This document shows positions 1-31,254 of a stretch of 33,748 nt of DNA, in pieces. The position numbers were made by a program, and so were the translations under genes. Every line of letters starts with the position of its first letter. Position 1 is the stretch's first letter. The DNA lies in the IMG/VR virus record IMGVR_UViG_2718218139_000002; one strand, given 5' to 3'. The notes below the pieces were generated by a model. It did not search any database and had not been told where the DNA came from. It saw nothing but the letters and a program-made list of their open reading frames with translations. Source of the DNA: a virus. Taxonomy: Duplodnaviria > Heunggongvirae > Uroviricota > Caudoviricetes.

Positions 1-177
1 ATGGAAAAAGATCTGAAAGCGTTGCGGGAATACCTGTTACTCTCCCCTGACTATCCTGAAGTTAACGATTCTCTGGCTAATTTCTCAACTGAAGACATGA
101 CCAACGAAGAGATAGCGGAACGTTTGGGAATTGCTCCAGATTGGATGGAAACCGTAGACCCCAGCAAACTTACCTGA
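1..177 (+). CDS. Small ORF at window edge (58 codons), unknown function; may be the 3' end of a longer upstream gene
   Basis: Open frame from position 1 to TGA at 175-177, followed directly by a GC-rich hairpin; no family recognised. Confidence 0.3.
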   Translation: MEKDLKALREYLLLSPDYPEVNDSLANFSTEDMTNEEIAERLGIAPDWMETVDPSKLT

Positions 178-178
178 T

Positions 179-212
179 GCAGAACGCGCCTTTGCTGGGC
201 GCGTTTCTTAGT
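179..212 (+). terminator. Candidate rho-independent terminator after the edge ORF
   Basis: Inverted repeat GAACGCGCC / GGCGCGTTTC around 183-208 followed by a T-rich stretch. Confidence 0.45.
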
Positions 213-262
213 CTTACATATGGCTGTTAATAGCTCAATACAGATGAGATTAGCCCTGCCAT

Positions 263-291
263 TTGACTATAAGTATCTTACACCGGATAAT
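263..291 (+). promoter_or_regulatory. Candidate sigma70 promoter for the two-gene operon
   Basis: TTGACT at 263-268, 17-bp spacer, GATAAT at 286-291, about 110 bp upstream of the first gene. Confidence 0.3.
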
Positions 292-402
292 TCGTGCGTA
301 AAAAGTGTTCAAACATATGATTCTTGATTTTGTTTGCCACCATAGTAAGCATTTTTATGTTGCATGTAGAGATGAGAAGGCAGGTATCACTTGATTGATA
401 TA

Positions 403-2868
403 ATGAAGGTTTGGCTTATTTCTCAAAAGTGGTTCTGGAAATTAAGAACAGATCTTGTGAGGGTTAGATTTATTTTAGAACGTGCGTCATACATACATCG
501 TACGTCTGTTTTTAAAGCTAAGTCTAACGCTCATGTTTTTATGTCTTTTGCGTTGGTAGGTTTAAAAAATTTGTTATGGGTCATATTAACGTTATTTGCA
601 CTGGGTTTTGTTGAAGATTATATTCGGAATAATACGATTTTGCTTCATCCTCTTAGCTATGATGAAAAAAAATTTAATATTGATCAACTTAGGTTGTACG
701 CACAGATACTTACCGCTATATTTTCAATATACTTTGCTACAATAGGTATCATTCTAAGTGCAGGATATACCAGACTTCGGCGAGATATTATACAAATGCT
801 TACTACCGAGCAGGTAGGTAATGTGTATTCGCGGACTTTAGTGCTTTCTGCGGTGTTTTGTCTTAGTGCAACTGCTCTCCACTTGTTCGGGGTTGAACCC
901 GGTCTTTTCGTTTATGCAATGGGAACATTGCTGACACTTGTTAGTTCCTTAGCTCTGTTCCCATTAGGTCAAAGATTATTCAATTTTTTTGACCTAAATC
1001 AGTTAGCCCGAAGTGAAATACTCCCACGAATTGCACGACACATCGAAGGTGCGTCTAATCCCAAGAATTCAGTATCTTTAGCTAATCATCACTCTAAAGC
1101 CGCACATTTGGCCTTTGAGCAGTTAAACTACATTGATGATCGCCTGATATGTGAAAAAGTAGGACTCGGAGATAATTTACCTGCTCTCAGTAATGTTTAT
1201 TCGGCATTACTTCTTCATTACCTTAATCAGAAACACAGAATTGATTATCAAAGTTACTGGTTCCCTAGACGAATAAAACATAAGCAATGGTTCTTAGCTG
1301 GCGACAGTGTAACATCCATTGCTTTAAAAACAAGGAGCCAATTAACGGTTGAAGAAGAACCAAATTATCTTTGGTTAGAGAATGAAATTATCAATAGGTT
1401 GGTAGGCCATATTGAACTTGCATTCAAAGCCGGTGATTTCAAGCTCGGGTTGGATCTCATCAGTCTATTCTCATCTCGTATATTAACTTATGCACAACAG
1501 TTTCAGTTCGATATTGGTATACGTGAACTTCGGAAAATGAAGACGATCATTGAAAAAGCCTTTACACCGTCTGATGTCGTTAATTATTTTGAGGAAAAGG
1601 TGATAAAAGTTGGAATTGCGGATGCATGGGCTGCATTAGGCAGCAATCTTTGCCTTGAAATGTTACGCCGCATGATTACTTTTGAGAAAGAATTGGAGCA
1701 GTTCTTTAAAGATGATATCTGGACAGAGACCTCTCTACACACTTTGCCTGCTTTTCTGCAGGTTGAGTTGGCCTTTATCGTAGAACGTATCGAATTCGAA
1801 AAAGAGATTGAAGGACAGAGATTATCCAAACCAAAGTACGTCCAGCAGTTGGCGGTTCAGAAGTTATTACAACAATATTCTAAAATTCTGCCAGAAGTAT
1901 GCGATTTTCACGTAAACATGGTTCCAGATTTCGTTAACTCACTGATAAACATGAAGATGCCGGAAGCCGCAACGCAAGTCGTTCTCGCTAGCCTACATAA
2001 TCATTTGAAGTTTCCCCATTGGTTTAATGAACTTTCTCTGCTCTTGGAGAGATACAGAAAGTACGAGCACTACTCTGAAAAGCTATACGCATTACCAGAA
2101 ATTAATATTGCTGAAATGCTCAAACAGTTTGTCGTTACACAGGATGAAGCTATAGCTATTCTTGGTAGGGAGGAAATTGTGGGACATATCATTGAACAAG
2201 AGCAAGATGATGAACTACCGGATCATTTGGGACAGATATATTTTGAGTTGGCTGAGGAATGTATACATGCGCTTGAACAGAATGATGAAAATAAACTGAG
2301 CAAGGTATTCCCTATGTTCATGGTTCTCTCATTGCTGGCATCAGATACTAAATTTGTAGATCCGAAACTCGATATAAACAACGAGTTTCGACTGCATCTC
2401 CTTTCATCCGCGATCAACGATCTGATGTCAGTTCTAGGTTTTGCTATCCTTTACAGTGCTTATTTCGATAATGCAAAACTATCTAAAACAGTACTTGATA
2501 GGTTTAAGTCTTGGCTCGAGTCTGTTCCCAACAAACAGCAGTATTTGAAGAGAATGATGATTCTTTCAAATCCGCGCAATTTCAGCTTGTGCGCATCACC
2601 GAGAGATATGATTCGTCTTAACTGGAAAATGGAATTTGAGCGCCGCGCAAGACATGATGGCTTTAGCGATCAAATGGGAATGAATCGAGGGAAATCTCAT
2701 ACGAACAAAGTTGTCAGAGAGTTCTTAAACTCCCATTCAGATGCATCGCATCTCTTTTGTGCTCTCGAAATTTTCCCGCAACTCGAGCAAATTGACTTCA
2801 AGATCGATTACCATGTTAGTGAGTTGGCTCGTCGTTTTGGCGTGGAATACGATAAGGATTTTGAATGA
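403..2868 (+). CDS. Large membrane protein, four predicted N-terminal TM helices plus a roughly 630-aa soluble domain; no recognisable family
   Basis: Long ORF 391-2868 (TTG at 391, first ATG at 403; start uncertain). Hydrophobic segments FMSFALVGLKNLLWVILTLFALGFV, LYAQILTAIFSIYFATIGIILSAGY, VLSAVFCLSATALHLFGV, LFVYAMGTLLTLVSSLALFPLG. AT-rich relative to phage genes. Stop overlaps the next start (ATGA). Confidence 0.6.
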   Translation: MKVWLISQKWFWKLRTDLVRVRFILERASYIHRTSVFKAKSNAHVFMSFALVGLKNLLWVILTLFALGFVEDYIRNNTILLHPLSYDEKKFNIDQLRLYAQILTAIFSIYFATIGIILSAGYTRLRRDIIQMLTTEQVGNVYSRTLVLSAVFCLSATALHLFGVEPGLFVYAMGTLLTLVSSLALFPLGQRLFNFFDLNQLARSEILPRIARHIEGASNPKNSVSLANHHSKAAHLAFEQLNYIDDRLICEKVGLGDNLPALSNVYSALLLHYLNQKHRIDYQSYWFPRRIKHKQWFLAGDSVTSIALKTRSQLTVEEEPNYLWLENEIINRLVGHIELAFKAGDFKLGLDLISLFSSRILTYAQQFQFDIGIRELRKMKTIIEKAFTPSDVVNYFEEKVIKVGIADAWAALGSNLCLEMLRRMITFEKELEQFFKDDIWTETSLHTLPAFLQVELAFIVERIEFEKEIEGQRLSKPKYVQQLAVQKLLQQYSKILPEVCDFHVNMVPDFVNSLINMKMPEAATQVVLASLHNHLKFPHWFNELSLLLERYRKYEHYSEKLYALPEINIAEMLKQFVVTQDEAIAILGREEIVGHIIEQEQDDELPDHLGQIYFELAEECIHALEQNDENKLSKVFPMFMVLSLLASDTKFVDPKLDINNEFRLHLLSSAINDLMSVLGFAILYSAYFDNAKLSKTVLDRFKSWLESVPNKQQYLKRMMILSNPRNFSLCASPRDMIRLNWKMEFERRARHDGFSDQMGMNRGKSHTNKVVREFLNSHSDASHLFCALEIFPQLEQIDFKIDYHVSELARRFGVEYDKDFE

Positions 2869-3857
2869 AAATTATCAAGAATATACCCCTTTACGGTTAT
2901 AGCGTCGATCCTGAGCAATTAAGTTTTGTTGATAGACTATTGACCAAGTCTAAGAATGAACGACCAGGTTTCTATCAAAGGATGTTTTATGAGGATTTTG
3001 CTAGAGTTTTTAATTTTGTAAATCACGGTGATACCAATTTGTTTCAAATCGAAACTAACGACGAAGAACTCATACGTAAAATGTTTGGAAATTTACAAGC
3101 TAGATATAGGAAATACTCGGTAGATGAAACAATACGTGAATTGGTGGAGGCAGTAGCGCAATCGTTGATTTGGCAAGGAACGGCATACTATTTTGTTCAA
3201 AACGTTTCTGAGCAAGAAAAAATACATATTACTCCTCTCGTTTCTGATAATATATTTTGTTTTTTTTCAGTGTATTTTCAGTATGTGCCGAAACGGTGTG
3301 AAAGATATTTAGAACGGGATCATGAGATGCTTCCAAGAGAATTAAGAATCTTGGATAAAAACAAACTAATGCGTTTCGAAATTCCTAGGTCCTTAAGGCA
3401 GATGTTGTCTGAACAAAATCGGACTTTAAAGATCATTGACAAGCATCAATTTGGTGTTACTAATTTTTATCCTCAAGCAACATACGAAAATCCTAACCCG
3501 AAAAGTCACTTTGATTTTAGCATTTGGAAAAATACGCAAGAGCAAGCATTATTCCGAGCTACGAGGAAAACCGGGTGGAATGGTAGAAATTATGATTCAT
3601 CAAAATGTTCTGATTTCTTCCATTACTATCGTCTTATTCGATTTAGACGGAATCAACTTATTTTACGTGATTATATATTGTTGCAATTAGGTAAAGAGCT
3701 CACAAGGGTAGGTCACCGATATAATGAGGACTTTAATGTTGTGATTTCACCAACAAGTGTTTTGCCTCAAATCGATAAACTAGATGAGATGGAATCATTA
3801 CTTTCTAGGGAGGAAATAGATTTTACTGAGGTGTCGGATTACTATTACGAACGTTGA
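2865..3857 (+). CDS. 330-aa soluble hypothetical protein, partner of the membrane protein
   Basis: ATG at 2865 overlaps the upstream TGA (2866-2868), indicating translational coupling; AT-rich; no motif recognised. Confidence 0.6.
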   Translation: MKIIKNIPLYGYSVDPEQLSFVDRLLTKSKNERPGFYQRMFYEDFARVFNFVNHGDTNLFQIETNDEELIRKMFGNLQARYRKYSVDETIRELVEAVAQSLIWQGTAYYFVQNVSEQEKIHITPLVSDNIFCFFSVYFQYVPKRCERYLERDHEMLPRELRILDKNKLMRFEIPRSLRQMLSEQNRTLKIIDKHQFGVTNFYPQATYENPNPKSHFDFSIWKNTQEQALFRATRKTGWNGRNYDSSKCSDFFHYYRLIRFRRNQLILRDYILLQLGKELTRVGHRYNEDFNVVISPTSVLPQIDKLDEMESLLSREEIDFTEVSDYYYER

Positions 3858-3980
3858 GCTTAGAAAAGTAACTATCGAACATTTAACACTATCATTTCGT
3901 TTCAATCTGGAGACTTATGGTGAACGTGCCCAAATTTCGCTCAGAGCAGACTGTCAGATTCAATCGTACCTTTTAAGTTG

Positions 3981-4011
3981 ATAACGCAATTTTGCGTTAT
4001 GCTTGTTTTTT
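3981..4011 (+). terminator. Candidate rho-independent terminator of the two-gene operon
   Basis: Palindrome ATAACGCAA..TTGCGTTAT (3981-4000) followed by GCTTGTTTTTT. Confidence 0.45.
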
Positions 4012-4648
4012 GGATGGGGATATATTTATCTCATTGATTTATATATAAATATAACGTTTATGTTGTTAGTCGTGCACGGTAAAGTTCTAGTATATGTCTC
4101 AGAATCTTCTTCAATACCTCAGGTATATTAAATGGTTAAAAGATAAAAAGCCTTTCAGAGTCGTGCTTACGCGCTCAAATTTCATGGTTGGGGATTTATA
4201 CGTGTATTCAACCCAAAAAGTGACTGAAAAAGTGCTTACAGAGTGACGTTACGTTGACGTTGTTTTCTGGTGATTTTTGCTCAGTAGTTGTTATTATATG
4301 TTTGATTATTATATATATTTTTAATATGTTGCTCACTTCAAACTCACGTCAACTCACTCTTATAGAGTGATTAATTTCTATAAGTACTTTATCTCAAAAT
4401 TTGATTTTTACGGATGGAAGCCCTTCAAAGAAACGTCATTTTTTTCTAAGACTTTGATCTTTCGTTAACGGTGTTAGTGGGGACTTCGGTCATCGAGTGC
4501 GATGCGCTCTTCTGACCGTTTCAATGGATAGGTTCGCCTTCTTGCGCCTCTCGCGGCGCTTGCCGCGCTCCGCGCTTTTGGCGATTGGGCAGGGATATTT
4601 CTCTTATATTGGTCGTTTTTTGCTCTGCCTTGTCACGATCTGTCACTA

Positions 4649-4900
4649 CTAGTAGTAATGGTCATAACCTCCGCTTTCTCTTCTGGCTCTGGATGCTCTC
4701 ACTCGTGCTTTTCTTAACATCCTTAACAGCGGGTGGGTTTGTACTTTGTTCGAGTTTATTGTCTGTGAGGATAGTAACTCCCTGCGCTCTGTCTCTGCCT
4801 CTTTGGTGACCGCTATCACTGATAAATCCCAATCGTGTTTGCTAATTAACGGTGCTTGGAACGGGGTGATTGGTGAGCGATTTATGTCTTGTCGTTTCAA
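4649..4900 (-). CDS. ORF occupying the N-gene position downstream of nutL; not recognisably an N antiterminator
   Basis: 83-codon ORF with TTG start lying 16 nt after a lambda-like AGGAGAATCCAG ribosome-binding stretch; arginine-rich segment RMLRKARVRASRARR is near the C-terminus rather than the N-terminus. Confidence 0.2.
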   Translation of the reverse strand: MKRQDINRSPITPFQAPLISKHDWDLSVIAVTKEAETERRELLSSQTINSNKVQTHPLLRMLRKARVRASRARRESGGYDHYY

Positions 4901-5020
4901 TGTACGCTGTCTGGATTCTCCTGTCAGTTAGCTTTGAGTAACGCGCCGTGATGCTTATCTCCACGGTTGCTGTCTTGCAGCTGCATTTCGCGCTACTCAA
5001 AGCCTTCTGCTTTGAATGCT

Positions 5021-5052
5021 GCCCTTCTTCAGGGCTAAATTTTTAAGAGCAT
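5021..5052 (-). promoter_or_regulatory. nutL: nutL (boxA plus boxB) N-utilisation site, lambda-type
   Basis: Minus strand reads TGCTCTTAAAAATTTAGCCCTGAAGAAGGGC: boxB hairpin GCCCTGAAGAAGGGC as I recall for lambda nutL, boxA one mismatch from CGCTCTTA. Confidence 0.7.
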
Positions 5053-5090
5053 CACCTTCATGGTGGTTAGTACGTCCTGCTGATGGCTAA

Positions 5091-5119
5091 ATAGTACGAT
5101 TTGTACTTTATCGAGTCAA
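5091..5119 (-). promoter_or_regulatory. pL: pL-like early-left promoter
   Basis: Minus strand TTGACT (5114-5119), 17-bp spacer, TACTAT (5091-5096), positioned upstream of nutL as in lambda; spacer holds palindrome AGTACAAATCGTACT. Confidence 0.55.
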
Positions 5120-5180
5120 TACAAAATGTTCTAAATATAATTAGTTTTTTATAACGCTTTGTATTTAATGGGTTTATATT

Positions 5181-5214
5181 TTGGAAAAAGAAAACCCGAC
5201 GCTAAGGTCGGGTT
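5181..5214 (-). terminator. Terminator downstream of the repressor gene
   Basis: Hairpin AACCCGAC-GCTAAG-GTCGGGTT (5193-5214); on the minus strand it is followed by TTTTCTTTTTCC. Confidence 0.55.
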
Positions 5215-5244
5215 ATTGTTGTGTGTTTTAGAGTTGTGAGGCTG

Positions 5245-5904
5245 TTAACTAAATGTCTCTTCAGGCCACTGGCTGGCGATAACTTTCCCTACTACGGAAC
5301 AGCTATCATTGCATGGAATCATTGGATATTGCGGGTTTAGTGGCTGTAGGAACACCTGACCGCTATCCCTGATCAGTTTCTTGAAGGTAAACTCGTCACC
5401 ACCAAGTCTGGCTATGCAGAAATCACCTGGCTCAACAGCCTGCTCAGGGTCAACGAGAATTAACATCCCGTCAGGAAAGCTTGGCTTTGATCCTGTTGGC
5501 GCGGTCATGGAATTACCTTCAACTTCAAGCCAAAACGCACAATCACTGGCTTTTTTGGTTGTGCTGACCCATCTCTCCGCATCACCTTTGGTAAAGGTTC
5601 TAAGCTCAGGCGAGAACATCCCGGCCTGAACATGAGAAAAAACAGGGTACTCATATTGTTTTTTAACGGGGGCAGATGAGTATTCGCCAACAGGTGAAAA
5701 TGTACCGTCGTGGTTGAATGAGACGTTATCAATACTAAGGTATTTAAACACCACACCAATCTCGTCAAGAGATGGATGACGAGATCCGCGCAACCAGTGA
5801 CCAATTCCACCCTGCGTCATACCAAGCTCTTCAGCTAACTTCTCTTGAGTTATGCCGAGCTCTTTCATTCTGGATCTAGCCAGTTCATACCATTTCATTT
5901 TCAT
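5245..5904 (-). CDS. cI: CI-type prophage repressor: HTH N-terminal domain plus LexA-like S24 autocleavage domain
   Basis: C-terminal half ([22 protein letters not shown]...GNSMTAP...FTFKKL...ASQWPEETF) matches lambda cI as recalled; N-terminal HTH domain differs. ORF extends to 5946; start placed at the MKMKWYEL methionine, alternatives at 5946 and 5940. Confidence 0.85.
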
Positions 5905-6015
5905 ACCCTTATTATTACGCTCTGTACTAAAACCATCCATGCACAAGATGTATTTTTTGTTTGCATTCTAAAAGTGCATATCGTATTATTGTTTCATGGT
6001 TACTATGGAGGGCAT
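5905..6015. promoter_or_regulatory. Divergent immunity control region (pRM/pR and operators)
   Basis: Intergenic region between divergent repressor and cro-like genes; candidate rightward promoter TTGCAT (5961-5966), 17 bp, TATTAT (5984-5989); GGAGGG ribosome-binding site at 6007-6012. Confidence 0.5.
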
Positions 6016-6222
6016 ATGAGCAACCTACGAAAATATCGAGAGTCACTGAATATCTCTCAAACAACACTTGCTAAGGCAGTTGGATGCACACAGGGAGCTA
6101 TCGGACATTGGGAATCTGGTCGTCGCTTCCCAGACCTTAAAACATGCCGTGCTCTTGTTGAGTGCCTAAAGCGGTATATGACGAGAACAGTAGCGCCGCG
6201 CCATTTGCTGAAATCATCGTGA
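6016..6222 (+). CDS. cro: Cro-like HTH regulator, C-terminus probably altered by a deletion fusion
   Basis: First gene rightward of the operator region; HTH segment [25 protein letters not shown]; the last 17 or so codons run into the helicase-remnant sequence. Confidence 0.55.
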
Positions 6223-28178: not shown

Positions 28179-28246
28179 AGTTGAAGCCCCAACTGCGGGA
28201 ACAGTCAGGGCTTCGGTATCAACAAATCGGATTAGGAAATATTGAC

Positions 28247-29125
28247 ATGAAAAGTATAGCAAAGGCACAAAACGATTTCACCATCTTCAAATTCGGCGAC
28301 AGTGAAATCCGCGTCATCAACAAATGCGGTGAGCCGTGGTTTGTAGCAAAAGATGTTTGTGATGCTTTAACCCTGACTAACTCACGCAAGGCGCTTACTG
28401 CACTTGATGACGATGAAAAGGGAGTAACTTTAAGTTACACCCTTGGTGGTGAGCAGAATCTAAGCATTGTTAGCGAATCAGGTATGTATACATTGGTTCT
28501 GCGCTGCCGCGATGCTGTCAATAAAGGTTCGGTCCCGCACAAATTCCGCAAGTGGGTAACAGCAGAAGTTCTACCTTCAATTCGCAAACATGGCGAGTAT
28601 GTGAAAGGCAAGAAAACCACTGTTGAGGAAAGAACGCCGCTACGCGATGCAGTAAACATGCTGGTAGGAAAGAAAGGACTTCGCTATGACGATGCATACA
28701 ATATGGTTCATCAGCGTTTTGGTATTGACAGCATTGATGAACTTTCAATTGAACAAATCCCGCTGGCCGTAGAGTACATCCACAGGGTAGTGCTTGAAGG
28801 CGAGTTTATCGGCAAACAAGAGAAGAAAGCAAACGAGCTTTCTGCAAAAGAAGCAAACAGCCTTGTATGGCTATGGGATTATGCTAACCGTTCACAGGCA
28901 TTATTCCGCGAACTGTATCCGGCATTAAAACAAATTCAATCGAACTATTCCGGCAGATGCTACGACTACGGTCATGAATTCTCGTATGTTATCGGAATGG
29001 CGAGAGACGTTTTAATAAACCACACACGAGATGTTGATATTAATGAGCCAGACGGACCAGCGAATCTTTCCGCATGGATGAGACTTAAGAATAAAGAATT
29101 ACCTCCTTCAGTACATAACTACTGA
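28247..29125 (+). CDS. ant: Antirepressor Ant (Bro-N domain)
   Basis: Follows arc; AGGAA ribosome-binding site before ATG at 28247; Bro-N-like N-terminal domain ([28 protein letters not shown]). Confidence 0.75.
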
Positions 29126-29226: not shown

Positions 29227-31254
29227 ATGACAGATATCACCGCAAATGTTGTGGTAAGCATGCCTTCGCAACTCTTCACTATGGCGCGTTCTTTTAAAGC
29301 GGTTGCCAATGGCAAAATTTATATCGGAAAAATTGACACTGACCCGGTAAATCCTGAAAACCAGATTCAGGTTTATGTAGAGAATGAAGACGGTTCTCAC
29401 GTTCCTGTTGCACAGCCAATCATCATTAACGCTGCTGGATATCCGGTATATAACGGACAGATTGCCAAGTTCGTAACTGTGCAAGGCCACTCTATGGCTG
29501 TATACGATGCGTATGGAGCGCAGCAGTTCTATTTTCCTAATGTGCTGAAGTATGATCCAGATCAGTTCTCCATAGATTTCCCTCAGCAACTTTCTCAATT
29601 AGGGTTATATGTAAATGATGACAGCAAGGGAGATGCAATGATAGGTGTTAAGCAGCCTATCACTGGGTCAATTCATCGTACACAGCACGATGTAAACTAT
29701 GAAAGAATTAGCGCTTTTGACCTTGGAGTGAAGGGGGATGGAGTTACTGATGATGTAACTGCAATTAGAGAAGCACTAATCACTGCAGCAACAGCAAGAC
29801 GTTCCATCCATTTCCCTGATGGCGTCTATTTATGCAGTGACTTTTTTTCAATACCAAGCCACTCAAGGATCTATTGTGACCCCGGTGCAGTTTTTAAACT
29901 TACAGGTAGTACTAGCCTTGGTGGATTCGCTGTAACAGGCCTCAATAATCAGGTGCAGCCAGAGCTATGTGAAGATGTTGTTACGTATAACATGACGCTT
30001 GATTGCAATAAAATATCAGGTGAAAACGGAATGAATGGCGTGACATGTAGGAACATACGTCACTACAACCTTACAGTCATTAATACTCTTCACAACGCAG
30101 AATCAAGAGGAGGAAGGGCCTTTCAATGCGAAGGGGGGATTTCATCTGATGTCCATGTTTTTAACTTTGTAATTAAAAATTGCTCTATAGGTGTAAATTA
30201 TCAAGGGCTACCAGATGCATCTCAAAAGGTTGCAGCATTCAGCTTTCACGGTGTAGCAATGGAGAACGTAGATGTTCCGTTCTGTATTTATTCACAAATA
30301 TCTAACCCTGAGTCAAACACACCAGAAATTATGAGTGTAGCTGCGTTTGATGTAAGTTGCCATAACTGCGGAAAAATCACTGGTGGATATGGTGATCAAC
30401 TTGGTGCTGGAATAATATGTGGCGATAGAGGTTATGGGCTATTTATAGATGGTATTCGAGTGGTTAACGAATCATCGTATGGAGGGATTGGAGCTTTTAT
30501 AAGGGGGCAAATGTTTGGCGTATCAATAAACAACGCTGACATTTATTGCATTTACGCTGTTTCAGTAATAGATCATAACAAGATAGGGTTTGATGACGCC
30601 GCTGTTAATACAGTTCCTTCAAGCGTTAGAGTTAGAAATTTAAATGTATCAAGTAATTTGGATTTTATAGTTCGAGCCCCTGACTCTTCGGCTATTGGTA
30701 ACTCAACAGTTGACGTGTCTGTAAACATAACAAGAGCATCACTAAATCAATTATTTGATTCTGGCGCAGGAGAAAGCGCTTCCGCAGTTATTAATATATC
30801 TGACTCTTTGACTGGTAAGTCATCAGGATTTAGAACGTTAAAAAATATTTTTGATGCTGGTAATTCTATTGGTTTACTATCTAGATATGATGCTGGCGGA
30901 AGCTGGGTCCCAATAGACGGTAGTGGTGCAGGAATTGCAATATTATTAACAGGACAGCAAAAATATACAAAAGCAGGTGAGGTTGTTCACTTTTATATGA
31001 ACATCATATACCCAGTGAACGATAACACAAACGACGCTGTTATCTCTGGATTGCCTTTTAACTCTGTACCGTTTGTTTCTCAATTTGCAGGAGCGGCATC
31101 AATAGCGATTAAGTCATCATCAATGTTATCAACTGTAGGGATTCTTCCTGGTGGTGATAAGCTGAAATTCTATGGTACAACTGGTGCCCCACTAACTAAC
31201 AGAGACATGTCAGGCGTTAGTGTTGCTGTTTTCGGATCATATATTTCCGAATAG
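29227..31254 (+). CDS. gp9: Tailspike: P22-type N-terminal head-binding domain fused to a distinct receptor-binding (probable beta-helix) domain
   Basis: N-terminal roughly 115 aa ([13 protein letters not shown]...[34 protein letters not shown]...[12 protein letters not shown]...NVLKYDPDQ) match P22 gp9 as recalled; remainder unrelated to P22. Confidence 0.85.

Follow-up and report, generated by a model that had tools for sequence, protein, structure and literature searches.

The repressor gene at 5245-5898 (minus strand) of the window, by which we mean the whole 33,748-nucleotide stretch of viral DNA that we analyzed, very probably encodes a working repressor of the cI type. Its N-terminal domain (the head) would read its own, non-lambda operators, and its C-terminal part (the tail), which is nearly that of lambda cI, would provide oligomerization and RecA-stimulated self-cleavage. 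The predicted immunity type is that of Nil2, AP005153, Stx2 II, 2851, and vB_EcoP-720R6, not that of lambda. Annotations of the same repressor, operators, and Cro already exist for the Stx1-converting phage AP005153, for Stx2 II, Nil2, and 2851, and for P22-like phages such as vB_EcoP-720R6. Because the exact protein, the immunity type, and the modular logic are all on record, the finding itself is already known. The gene lies in a badly decayed P22-like prophage.

A two-domain repressor with a lambda-class tail

From the ATG at 5898, the gene encodes 217 amino acids plus a stop codon; from the ATG at 5904, it would encode 219. In the list of open reading frames for the window, the minus-strand frame extends from 5245 to 5946. 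The reading frame is intact and has two domains in Pfam: HTH_3 (E = 5e-10, above the curated cutoff) and Peptidase_S24 (PF00717; E = 1e-28, a full-length match). The predicted product is a cI/LexA-type repressor of the self-cleaving S24 class. The gene is divergently paired with a small HTH_3 gene that starts at 6016, which is the position of cro. NCBI has E. coli entries for both a 217- and a 231-amino-acid form of the repressor, named "phage repressor" or "LexA family protein."

When the repressor is compared to lambda cI (NC_001416), BLASTP gives an E value of 2e-111. Residues 82-217 (5248-5655, minus strand), which span the cleavage-site region, the S24 domain, and the oligomerization domain, are of the lambda class: 133 of these last 136 residues (YEYPVFSH to the end) are identical to lambda cI (98%), with only S139C, E217D, and G236S (lambda numbering) setting the two apart. 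At the DNA level, 379 of the 408 nucleotides of the tail are shared with lambda cI. The first-pass annotation had described the C-terminal domain as matching lambda cI essentially throughout, and the identity is no lower than that description implied. The tail also matches crystal structures of lambda cI (3bdn, 1f39, and 2ho0). It is 97% identical to the tail of Stx1-phage cI, 79% identical to that of an epsilon34-like repressor, and 44% identical to that of phage L c2. At the protein level, it is 100% identical to the tail from the live phage Dewey.

The residues that are needed for self-cleavage are conserved. In a gapless alignment (VQAGMF), Ala92-Gly93 (codons at 5620-5625, minus strand) correspond to the self-cleavage site of lambda, Ala111-Gly112. 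Ser130 (5509-5511, minus strand) corresponds to the nucleophile Ser149 of lambda, and Lys173 (5380-5382, minus strand) corresponds to the general base Lys192; both are invariant in an alignment of six repressors. We infer RecA-stimulated self-cleavage from the 98% identity to the C-terminal part of lambda cI. The proposal that RecA-type induction chemistry is retained is supported by the conservation of Ala92-Gly93, Ser130, and Lys173, and it concerns the predicted activity. The C-terminal 136 residues would supply the contacts for dimers and tetramers as well as the RecA-stimulated cut at Ala92-Gly93, with Ser130 and Lys173 as the catalytic residues. Given the lambda-type tail, DNA damage would inactivate the repressor as it does in lambda, even though the immunity would differ.

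We also considered whether the repressor might be functional and yet, in P22-like phages, be inactivated mainly by a bound antirepressor (Ant) and not by RecA-stimulated cleavage. Ant from P22 inactivates several lambdoid repressors noncovalently, and the same prophage contains an Ant-type gene (28181-29125, with Bro-N and P22_AR_C domains). However, the tail is under strong purifying selection, with both the cleavage site and the catalytic dyad unchanged, and the same repressor serves Stx phages that have a different type of virion. The two routes are not mutually exclusive in any case. It seems quite improbable that Ant is the main route, and we favor RecA-stimulated cleavage as the expected means of induction.

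The head and the start codon

Residues 1-81 (5656-5898, minus strand) form the helix-turn-helix head and the linker, which are the immunity-specific part of the protein. When we scored the alignment of six repressors by domain, just 16 of these 81 residues (20%) were identical to lambda cI. In contrast, the head is 95% identical (77/81) to AP005153 cI, and it has a single difference from the head of 720R6. More distant relatives are the repressor of an epsilon34-like Salmonella phage (49%) and phage L c2 (42%). The recognition helix is QGGIGHWLR, as opposed to QSGVGALFN in lambda cI, and in the alignment, the N-terminal arm of lambda's repressor is missing.

The first-pass annotation had called the N-terminal domain unrelated to lambda's. 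At 20% identity in the domain-wise alignment, the head is indeed not lambda-like, but "unrelated" is too strong: the two heads are identical at 12 of 26 positions in helices 2-3 (pairwise E = 1e-7), and the lambda head domain is among the best matches to the head in PDB sequences (E = 5e-4). These matches place the head, though diverged, in the same fold family as lambda's (HTH_3 or lambda repressor-like). Glu34 and Asp38 of lambda cI, which are known from positive-control mutants to activate cI's own promoter, align with Glu19 and Glu23 of the window's repressor.

Four ATG codons (5946, 5940, 5904, and 5898) had been listed as possible starts. The last three are in-frame ATGs, but the codon at 5946 is TTG. 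We identified an inferred maintenance promoter (PRM) by reading the sequence at 5911-5939 (minus strand), with a -35 element of TGGATG at 5939-5934 and a -10 element of AATAAT at 5916-5911. The -35 element coincides with the annotation in AP005153. PRM is weak by consensus, and the consensus promoter scan did not report it. Its transcript is predicted to start at about 5904 and would then have little or no leader; the cI message from lambda's PRM is leaderless. This geometry favors the ATG at 5904 (leaderless) or the ATG at 5898, which has AAGGG seven bases upstream, and it counts against 5940 and 5946. Translation likely begins at 5904 or 5898. The long N-terminal extensions that result from starting at 5940 or 5946 (as in PGAP's 231-amino-acid product) were rejected as unlikely: both codons fall within OR2 and are located farther upstream than any plausible maintenance promoter.

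Candidate operators and Cro

The consensus scan did identify the two early promoters. PR is at 5960-5989 (plus strand), with a -35 element of TTTGCA or TTGCAT and a -10 element of TATTAT, and is located where AP005153 has an annotated promoter. pL is at 5091-5119 (minus strand), with a -35 element of TTGACT and a -10 element of TACTAT. PR is overlapped by candidate operator OR1, and pL is overlapped by OL1 and OL2.

Overall, we found six candidate operators of 17 bp, each approximately a dyad of AGTAC-N5-GTACT. Three are in OL (5092-5166) and three are in OR (5913-5988). OL1 (5092-5108, T AGTAC GATTT GTACT T) is a perfect match to the motif, is an annotated operator in AP005153, and aligns to exactly the position of lambda OL1. 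OL2 (5117-5133, C AATAC AAAAT GTTCT A) was identified from the motif search and the alignment. OL3 (5150-5166, T ATAAC GCTTT GTATT T) has three mismatches to the idealized motif, and its equivalent in AP005153 is annotated. On the other side, the motif search identified OR3 (5913-5929, T ATTAC GCTCT GTACT A), at the position of a "putative operator" in AP005153, and OR1 (5972-5988, A AGTGC ATATC GTATT A). OR2 (5939-5955, A TGCAC AAGAT GTATT T) has an annotated equivalent in AP005153. The first-pass annotation had suggested looking for operator palindromes at 5905-6015, where the candidate OR sites do lie, and at 5090-5120, which contains OL sites but is too short to hold all of them.

The motif matches are clustered. 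If up to two mismatches are allowed, then 4 of the 15 matches across the entire window are in the OL and OR control regions, which total 218 bp (P ~ 2e-6). Five relatives differ in the central and spacer bases but not in the half-sites of the operators. The exception is OR1, whose left half-site has an A-to-G change at 5976, a conserved position (AGTAC to AGTGC). The G is common to three identical defective prophages (L010-L012), and four intact relatives have A. This change could weaken the binding of the repressor or of Cro, or it could be neutral drift.

We did not find any lambda-type operators (with TATCACCGC half-sites) in 5086-5186 or 5899-6015, even with up to three mismatches. The operator that was proposed for the epsilon34 repressor, WTACRAWWTGTAT, has the same TAC-N5-GTA core as the sites in the window (PMC2629481).

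The spacing of the sites also differs from lambda's. OR1 and OR2, as well as OL2 and OL3, are 33 bp apart (center to center), versus 23-24 bp in lambda, so it is uncertain if lambda-style pairwise cooperativity occurs at these two pairs. Relative to the predicted start of the PRM transcript, the centers of OR2 and OR3 are at about -43 and -17; for lambda, we computed -42 and -19 from the annotation of NC_001416 and the known start of PRM. Another 17-bp dyad, TGCATTCTAAAAGTGCA at 5962-5978, overlaps the -35 region of PR and OR1. We considered it as a fourth OR site and rejected it, as its GTAC-type cores are 7 bases apart instead of 5.

The cro gene is truncated (6016-6222, plus strand). Codons 1-51 of a 71-codon HTH-type cro gene are followed by the tail of a helicase gene: codon 51 is joined, at 6167-6170, to the last ~50 nucleotides of a DnaB-like helicase gene in another frame, with 2-3 bases of microhomology at the junction. 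The first 51 residues are identical to Cro from 720R6, and the last 20 residues are replaced by 17 foreign ones. In the relatives, intact Cro has 71 amino acids, belongs to HTH_3, is 35% identical to the head of the repressor, and shares TQGxIGHW with it. This identity and the shared recognition motif imply that Cro is a paralog of the repressor's head and is not a Cro of the lambda fold. Cro is 99% identical between the Stx-phage subtype and the subtype to which the window belongs.

We did not find the junction between cro and the helicase gene when we scanned contigs from one genome per species. However, dozens of E. coli assemblies have the exact 68-amino-acid Cro fusion protein, which is found in at least 52 blocks of the collection. 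We considered whether the window might be an artifact of assembly or construction and rejected this, as look-ups of the exact protein show that the same junction recurs in E. coli assemblies.

The sites and Cro also bear on whether the gene could belong to the lambda immunity group, with a head that has diverged from lambda's but still recognizes lambda operators. The weak homology in the helix-turn-helix core and the PDB match would be compatible with this. But the low identity of the heads, the different recognition helix, OL and OR regions without lambda-type operators, and a Cro from a different fold family than lambda Cro all argue against it, and we consider it extremely improbable. The earlier suggestion that the operator specificity differs from lambda's is borne out, insofar as it can be predicted, by the clustered sites of the AGTAC-N5-GTACT type, the lack of lambda-type operators, and a Cro that is paralogous to the head.

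We propose that dimers of a working repressor with its own specificity would bind the 17-bp operators via the N-terminal helix-turn-helix, as expected from homology. With three operators overlapping pL and three overlapping PR and PRM, binding would close both early promoters. The repressor would probably stimulate its own weak promoter from OR2 (centered about 43 bp upstream of the gene) via the equivalents of lambda's activating residues, Glu19 and Glu23.

Homology to lambda begins abruptly in the linker

DNA homology to lambda begins abruptly at 5655, which corresponds to lambda codon Tyr101. This is in the linker between the domains and is ten residues before the Ala111-Gly112 cleavage site (lambda numbering). 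From 5655 to the stop codon, the DNA is 93% identical to lambda. Downstream of the gene, there is no rexA or rexB. Instead, there is a bidirectional intrinsic terminator (5193-5214, identified by a scan), just past the repressor gene and at the site where lambda has rexA-rexB plus a terminator. The DNA around it (5187-5222) is 89% identical to 35799-35834 of lambda, which overlaps the 3' end of rexB. A 101-bp block with OL and pL is not homologous to lambda, and beyond it, the pL leader and nutL region (4998-5085, minus strand) are lambda-like again (95% identity to 35496-35583). This pattern implies that there are two separate immunity-specific blocks (OL, and the head with OR and cro) within a lambda-like backbone. 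The mixing of heads and tails among the repressors of lambdoid phages is textbook mosaicism.

The sharing of the tail does not seem to be recent. Of the 29 differences from lambda across 408 bases, 26 are synonymous and 3 are nonsynonymous (dS = 0.38, dN = 0.009, and dN/dS = 0.025). With nearly all of the differences being synonymous, the sharing with lambda must be old and under very strong purifying selection, with no recent splice. Tails from lambda, the Stx-phage subtype, and the window's subtype are about equally distant from each other (dS = 0.38-0.50). Even within one immunity type, the two domains have separate histories: between 5248-5898 of the window and 3004-3654 of locus L003, dS is 0.17 in the head block and 0.50 in the tail (Fisher P = 0.007). 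These results suggest repeated exchange at the inter-domain linker.

The first-pass annotation had called the protein a hybrid repressor with lambda's C-terminal domain on a different DNA-binding domain. "Hybrid" is a fair description relative to lambda, but the direction of exchange that it implies does not hold up, as both heads have relatives with which their tails have co-diverged. For lambda, this is P13374 (head 56%, tail 65%). For the window's gene, these are 103203_sal5 (49% and 79%) and phage L c2 (42% and 44%). Because both heads have co-diverged relatives, the domain-wise identities leave the direction undecided, and it may equally be lambda, rather than the window-type phage, that is the recombinant.

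Immunity type and relatives

Two repressors with at least 92% identity in the head are expected, as a rule of thumb, to have the same specificity (PMC2629481). At 95%, the head clears this threshold with AP005153, and the half-sites and positions of the operators are also the same, except at 5976. None of the corresponding features point to the lambda immunity group: the heads are 20% identical, there are no lambda-type operators, and Cro is of the HTH_3 type.

Using tblastn, we found the head, at 90% identity or more, in 63 phage records, below which identity drops to about 52% for the next group. For the lambda head, 36 records have 95% identity or more, and for the lambda-class tail, approximately 96-98 have 90% or more. 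Thus, in that collection of phages, the tail is common to essentially these two immunity types. Among complete genomes of E. coli, 775 of 5,426 contain the DNA of the head plus OR, including O157:H7, CFT073, and ATCC 25922.

The region 4998-6170 is 99.3% identical (DNA) to the P22-like phage vB_EcoP-720R6 and is close to Dewey and Louie. It is 92% identical to the Stx1-converting phage, Stx2 II, Nil2, 2851, and the PA series. The same two-domain protein is found throughout the family of AP005153, Stx2 II (AP005154), Nil2 (AJ413274), 2851, YYZ-2008, 720R6, Dewey, and Louie; for AP005153, the Stx1-converting phage, cI is identical to the window's repressor at 209 of 216 positions. Systems of the AP005153/720R6 type also have the same six operator positions and the same half-sites, and the part of Cro that is left in the window (residues 1-51) is that of 720R6. 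The window differs from this group by substitutions in the head (Ser54) and in the tail (Cys120, Asp198, and Ser217), by the A-to-G change in OR1, by its truncated cro, and by the deletion of N, cII, and the replication genes. Also, the Stx-phage versions have accessory genes between the repressor gene and OL, and the window has none.

The lambda system is similar in its tail and in its layout. The cI proteins of lambda, HK97, HK106, HK542, and SfI have a tail like the window's, including the cleavage site, the catalytic dyad, and the oligomerization surface. Like the window, lambda has three operators per side, PR and PRM back to back, and flanking DNA (the nutL leader and the terminator) that is 89-95% identical. 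Unlike the window, lambda has a different head, operators, and Cro, contains rexA and rexB, has the N-terminal arm, and has OR1 and OR2 spaced by 24 bp instead of 33 bp.

Other known systems resemble the window in part. P22 c2, phage L c2, and 434 cI have a short head without the arm, a Cro that is paralogous to the head, and P22-like genomes, but their C-terminal domains are just ~44-47% identical to the window's. The epsilon34 repressor has a protease domain like that of lambda or HK97 (~80%) and a head that is ~50% identical to those of L, VT2-Sa, and Nil2 (PMC2629481). It was argued that a lambda-like protease domain with a different head gives the same induction but a different immunity (PMC2629481). 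We took 103203_sal5 to be epsilon34-like from its matching percentages (49% in the head and 79% in the tail), not from a direct comparison. Relative to the window, epsilon34 has a different predicted immunity type, and both domains are more diverged. A paper on the classification of CI proteins from Stx phages noted a clade that is ~61% identical to lambda and did not discuss domain mosaicism.

As a discovery, it counts for little: databases already list the exact protein with unremarkable names, and roughly one complete E. coli genome in seven carries the immunity type. The case has modest value as a clean worked example of a break in the linker and of one tail that is common to two immunity types. 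For Stx phages of the same immunity, both superinfection and induction could be affected in a host that already has such a repressor.

A defective prophage

The prophage around the module is badly decayed, a point that the first-pass annotation had missed. Homology to intact immunity regions stops at 4910, where the N gene should begin. The prophage lacks N and all of the early-left genes, and 1-4910 of the window is an unrelated island. Adjoining the pL/nutL side is a 3' fragment of a replication gene from the island (4649-4900, minus strand), which is intact in E. coli 98224 (L005). On the other side, the deletion at the 6167-6170 junction removes nutR, cII, O, and the helicase gene.

There are also two elements of the IS3 family, at about 14210-15475 and 17347-18592, each with an HTH_Tnp_1-type orfA and an orfB with an rve domain. 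In the first case, the endolysin gene is broken after ~100 codons. The second element lies within the coat gene, where a 5-6 bp overlap of the flanking homology suggests a target duplication. At 15650, a further deletion has brought the spanin gene up against what is left of the portal gene (its final ~85 codons), with the terminase subunits and the rest of portal lost. Q and a holin gene remain downstream. Over 12-14 kb, the window is 99.9-100% identical to three E. coli assemblies, and the defective arrangement is genuine and inherited.

In this prophage, all that the repressor could do is silence the remaining early and late genes and confer immunity to phages of the same type. With the prophage being defective, the gene may or may not be expressed and selected in its host, and the identical copies of the gene in other assemblies are too similar to gauge selection.

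Could the gene be a relic that is neither expressed nor selected, with a reading frame that is intact only because the prophage decayed recently? The losses described above (N, the early-left genes, cII, O, the helicase gene, terminase, and most of portal) fit with this, as do the interrupted endolysin and coat genes, the truncated cro, and the altered half-site of OR1. With cII and the establishment promoter gone, PRM is the only possible source of expression. However, nothing is broken in the reading frame, the operators, pL, PR, or the terminator; the identity of the tail to that of a live phage (Dewey) and of the region to 720R6 also counts against a relic; and dozens of assemblies retain this arrangement. 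Furthermore, Q and the holin gene are still downstream, so losing repression could be harmful. Overall, a relic seems unlikely, and we prefer the interpretation that the repressor works.

A more specific idea is that the gene acts as a domesticated one-way switch: a prophage that cannot replicate, package, or lyse would be kept in a lineage of E. coli and would immunize its host against Stx phages of the same type. We view this as tentative and rather doubtful. If it were so, then the repressor could damp the induction of toxin phages in trans, wherever a Stx phage with the same immunity is co-resident.

The rest of the window has a few other features. The island at 1-4910 encodes proteins of 825 and 330 amino acids and is found in ~150 complete E. 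coli genomes. These two open reading frames, along with another of 590 amino acids, are in AT-rich DNA (30-40% G+C) at 391-3857 and 8317-10089 (minus strand). None of the three had a match in Pfam or PADLOC. The 590-amino-acid frame is placed among the nin genes, like a moron. Toward the other end, the antirepressor-type gene with Bro-N and P22_AR_C domains is close to the tailspike gene (29227-31254), which is immediately followed by a P4-type tyrosine integrase (31347-32540, minus strand) with arm-binding, central, and catalytic domains. This integrase could belong to the prophage, in which case the lost excisionase would have been at the other end, or to an adjacent element.
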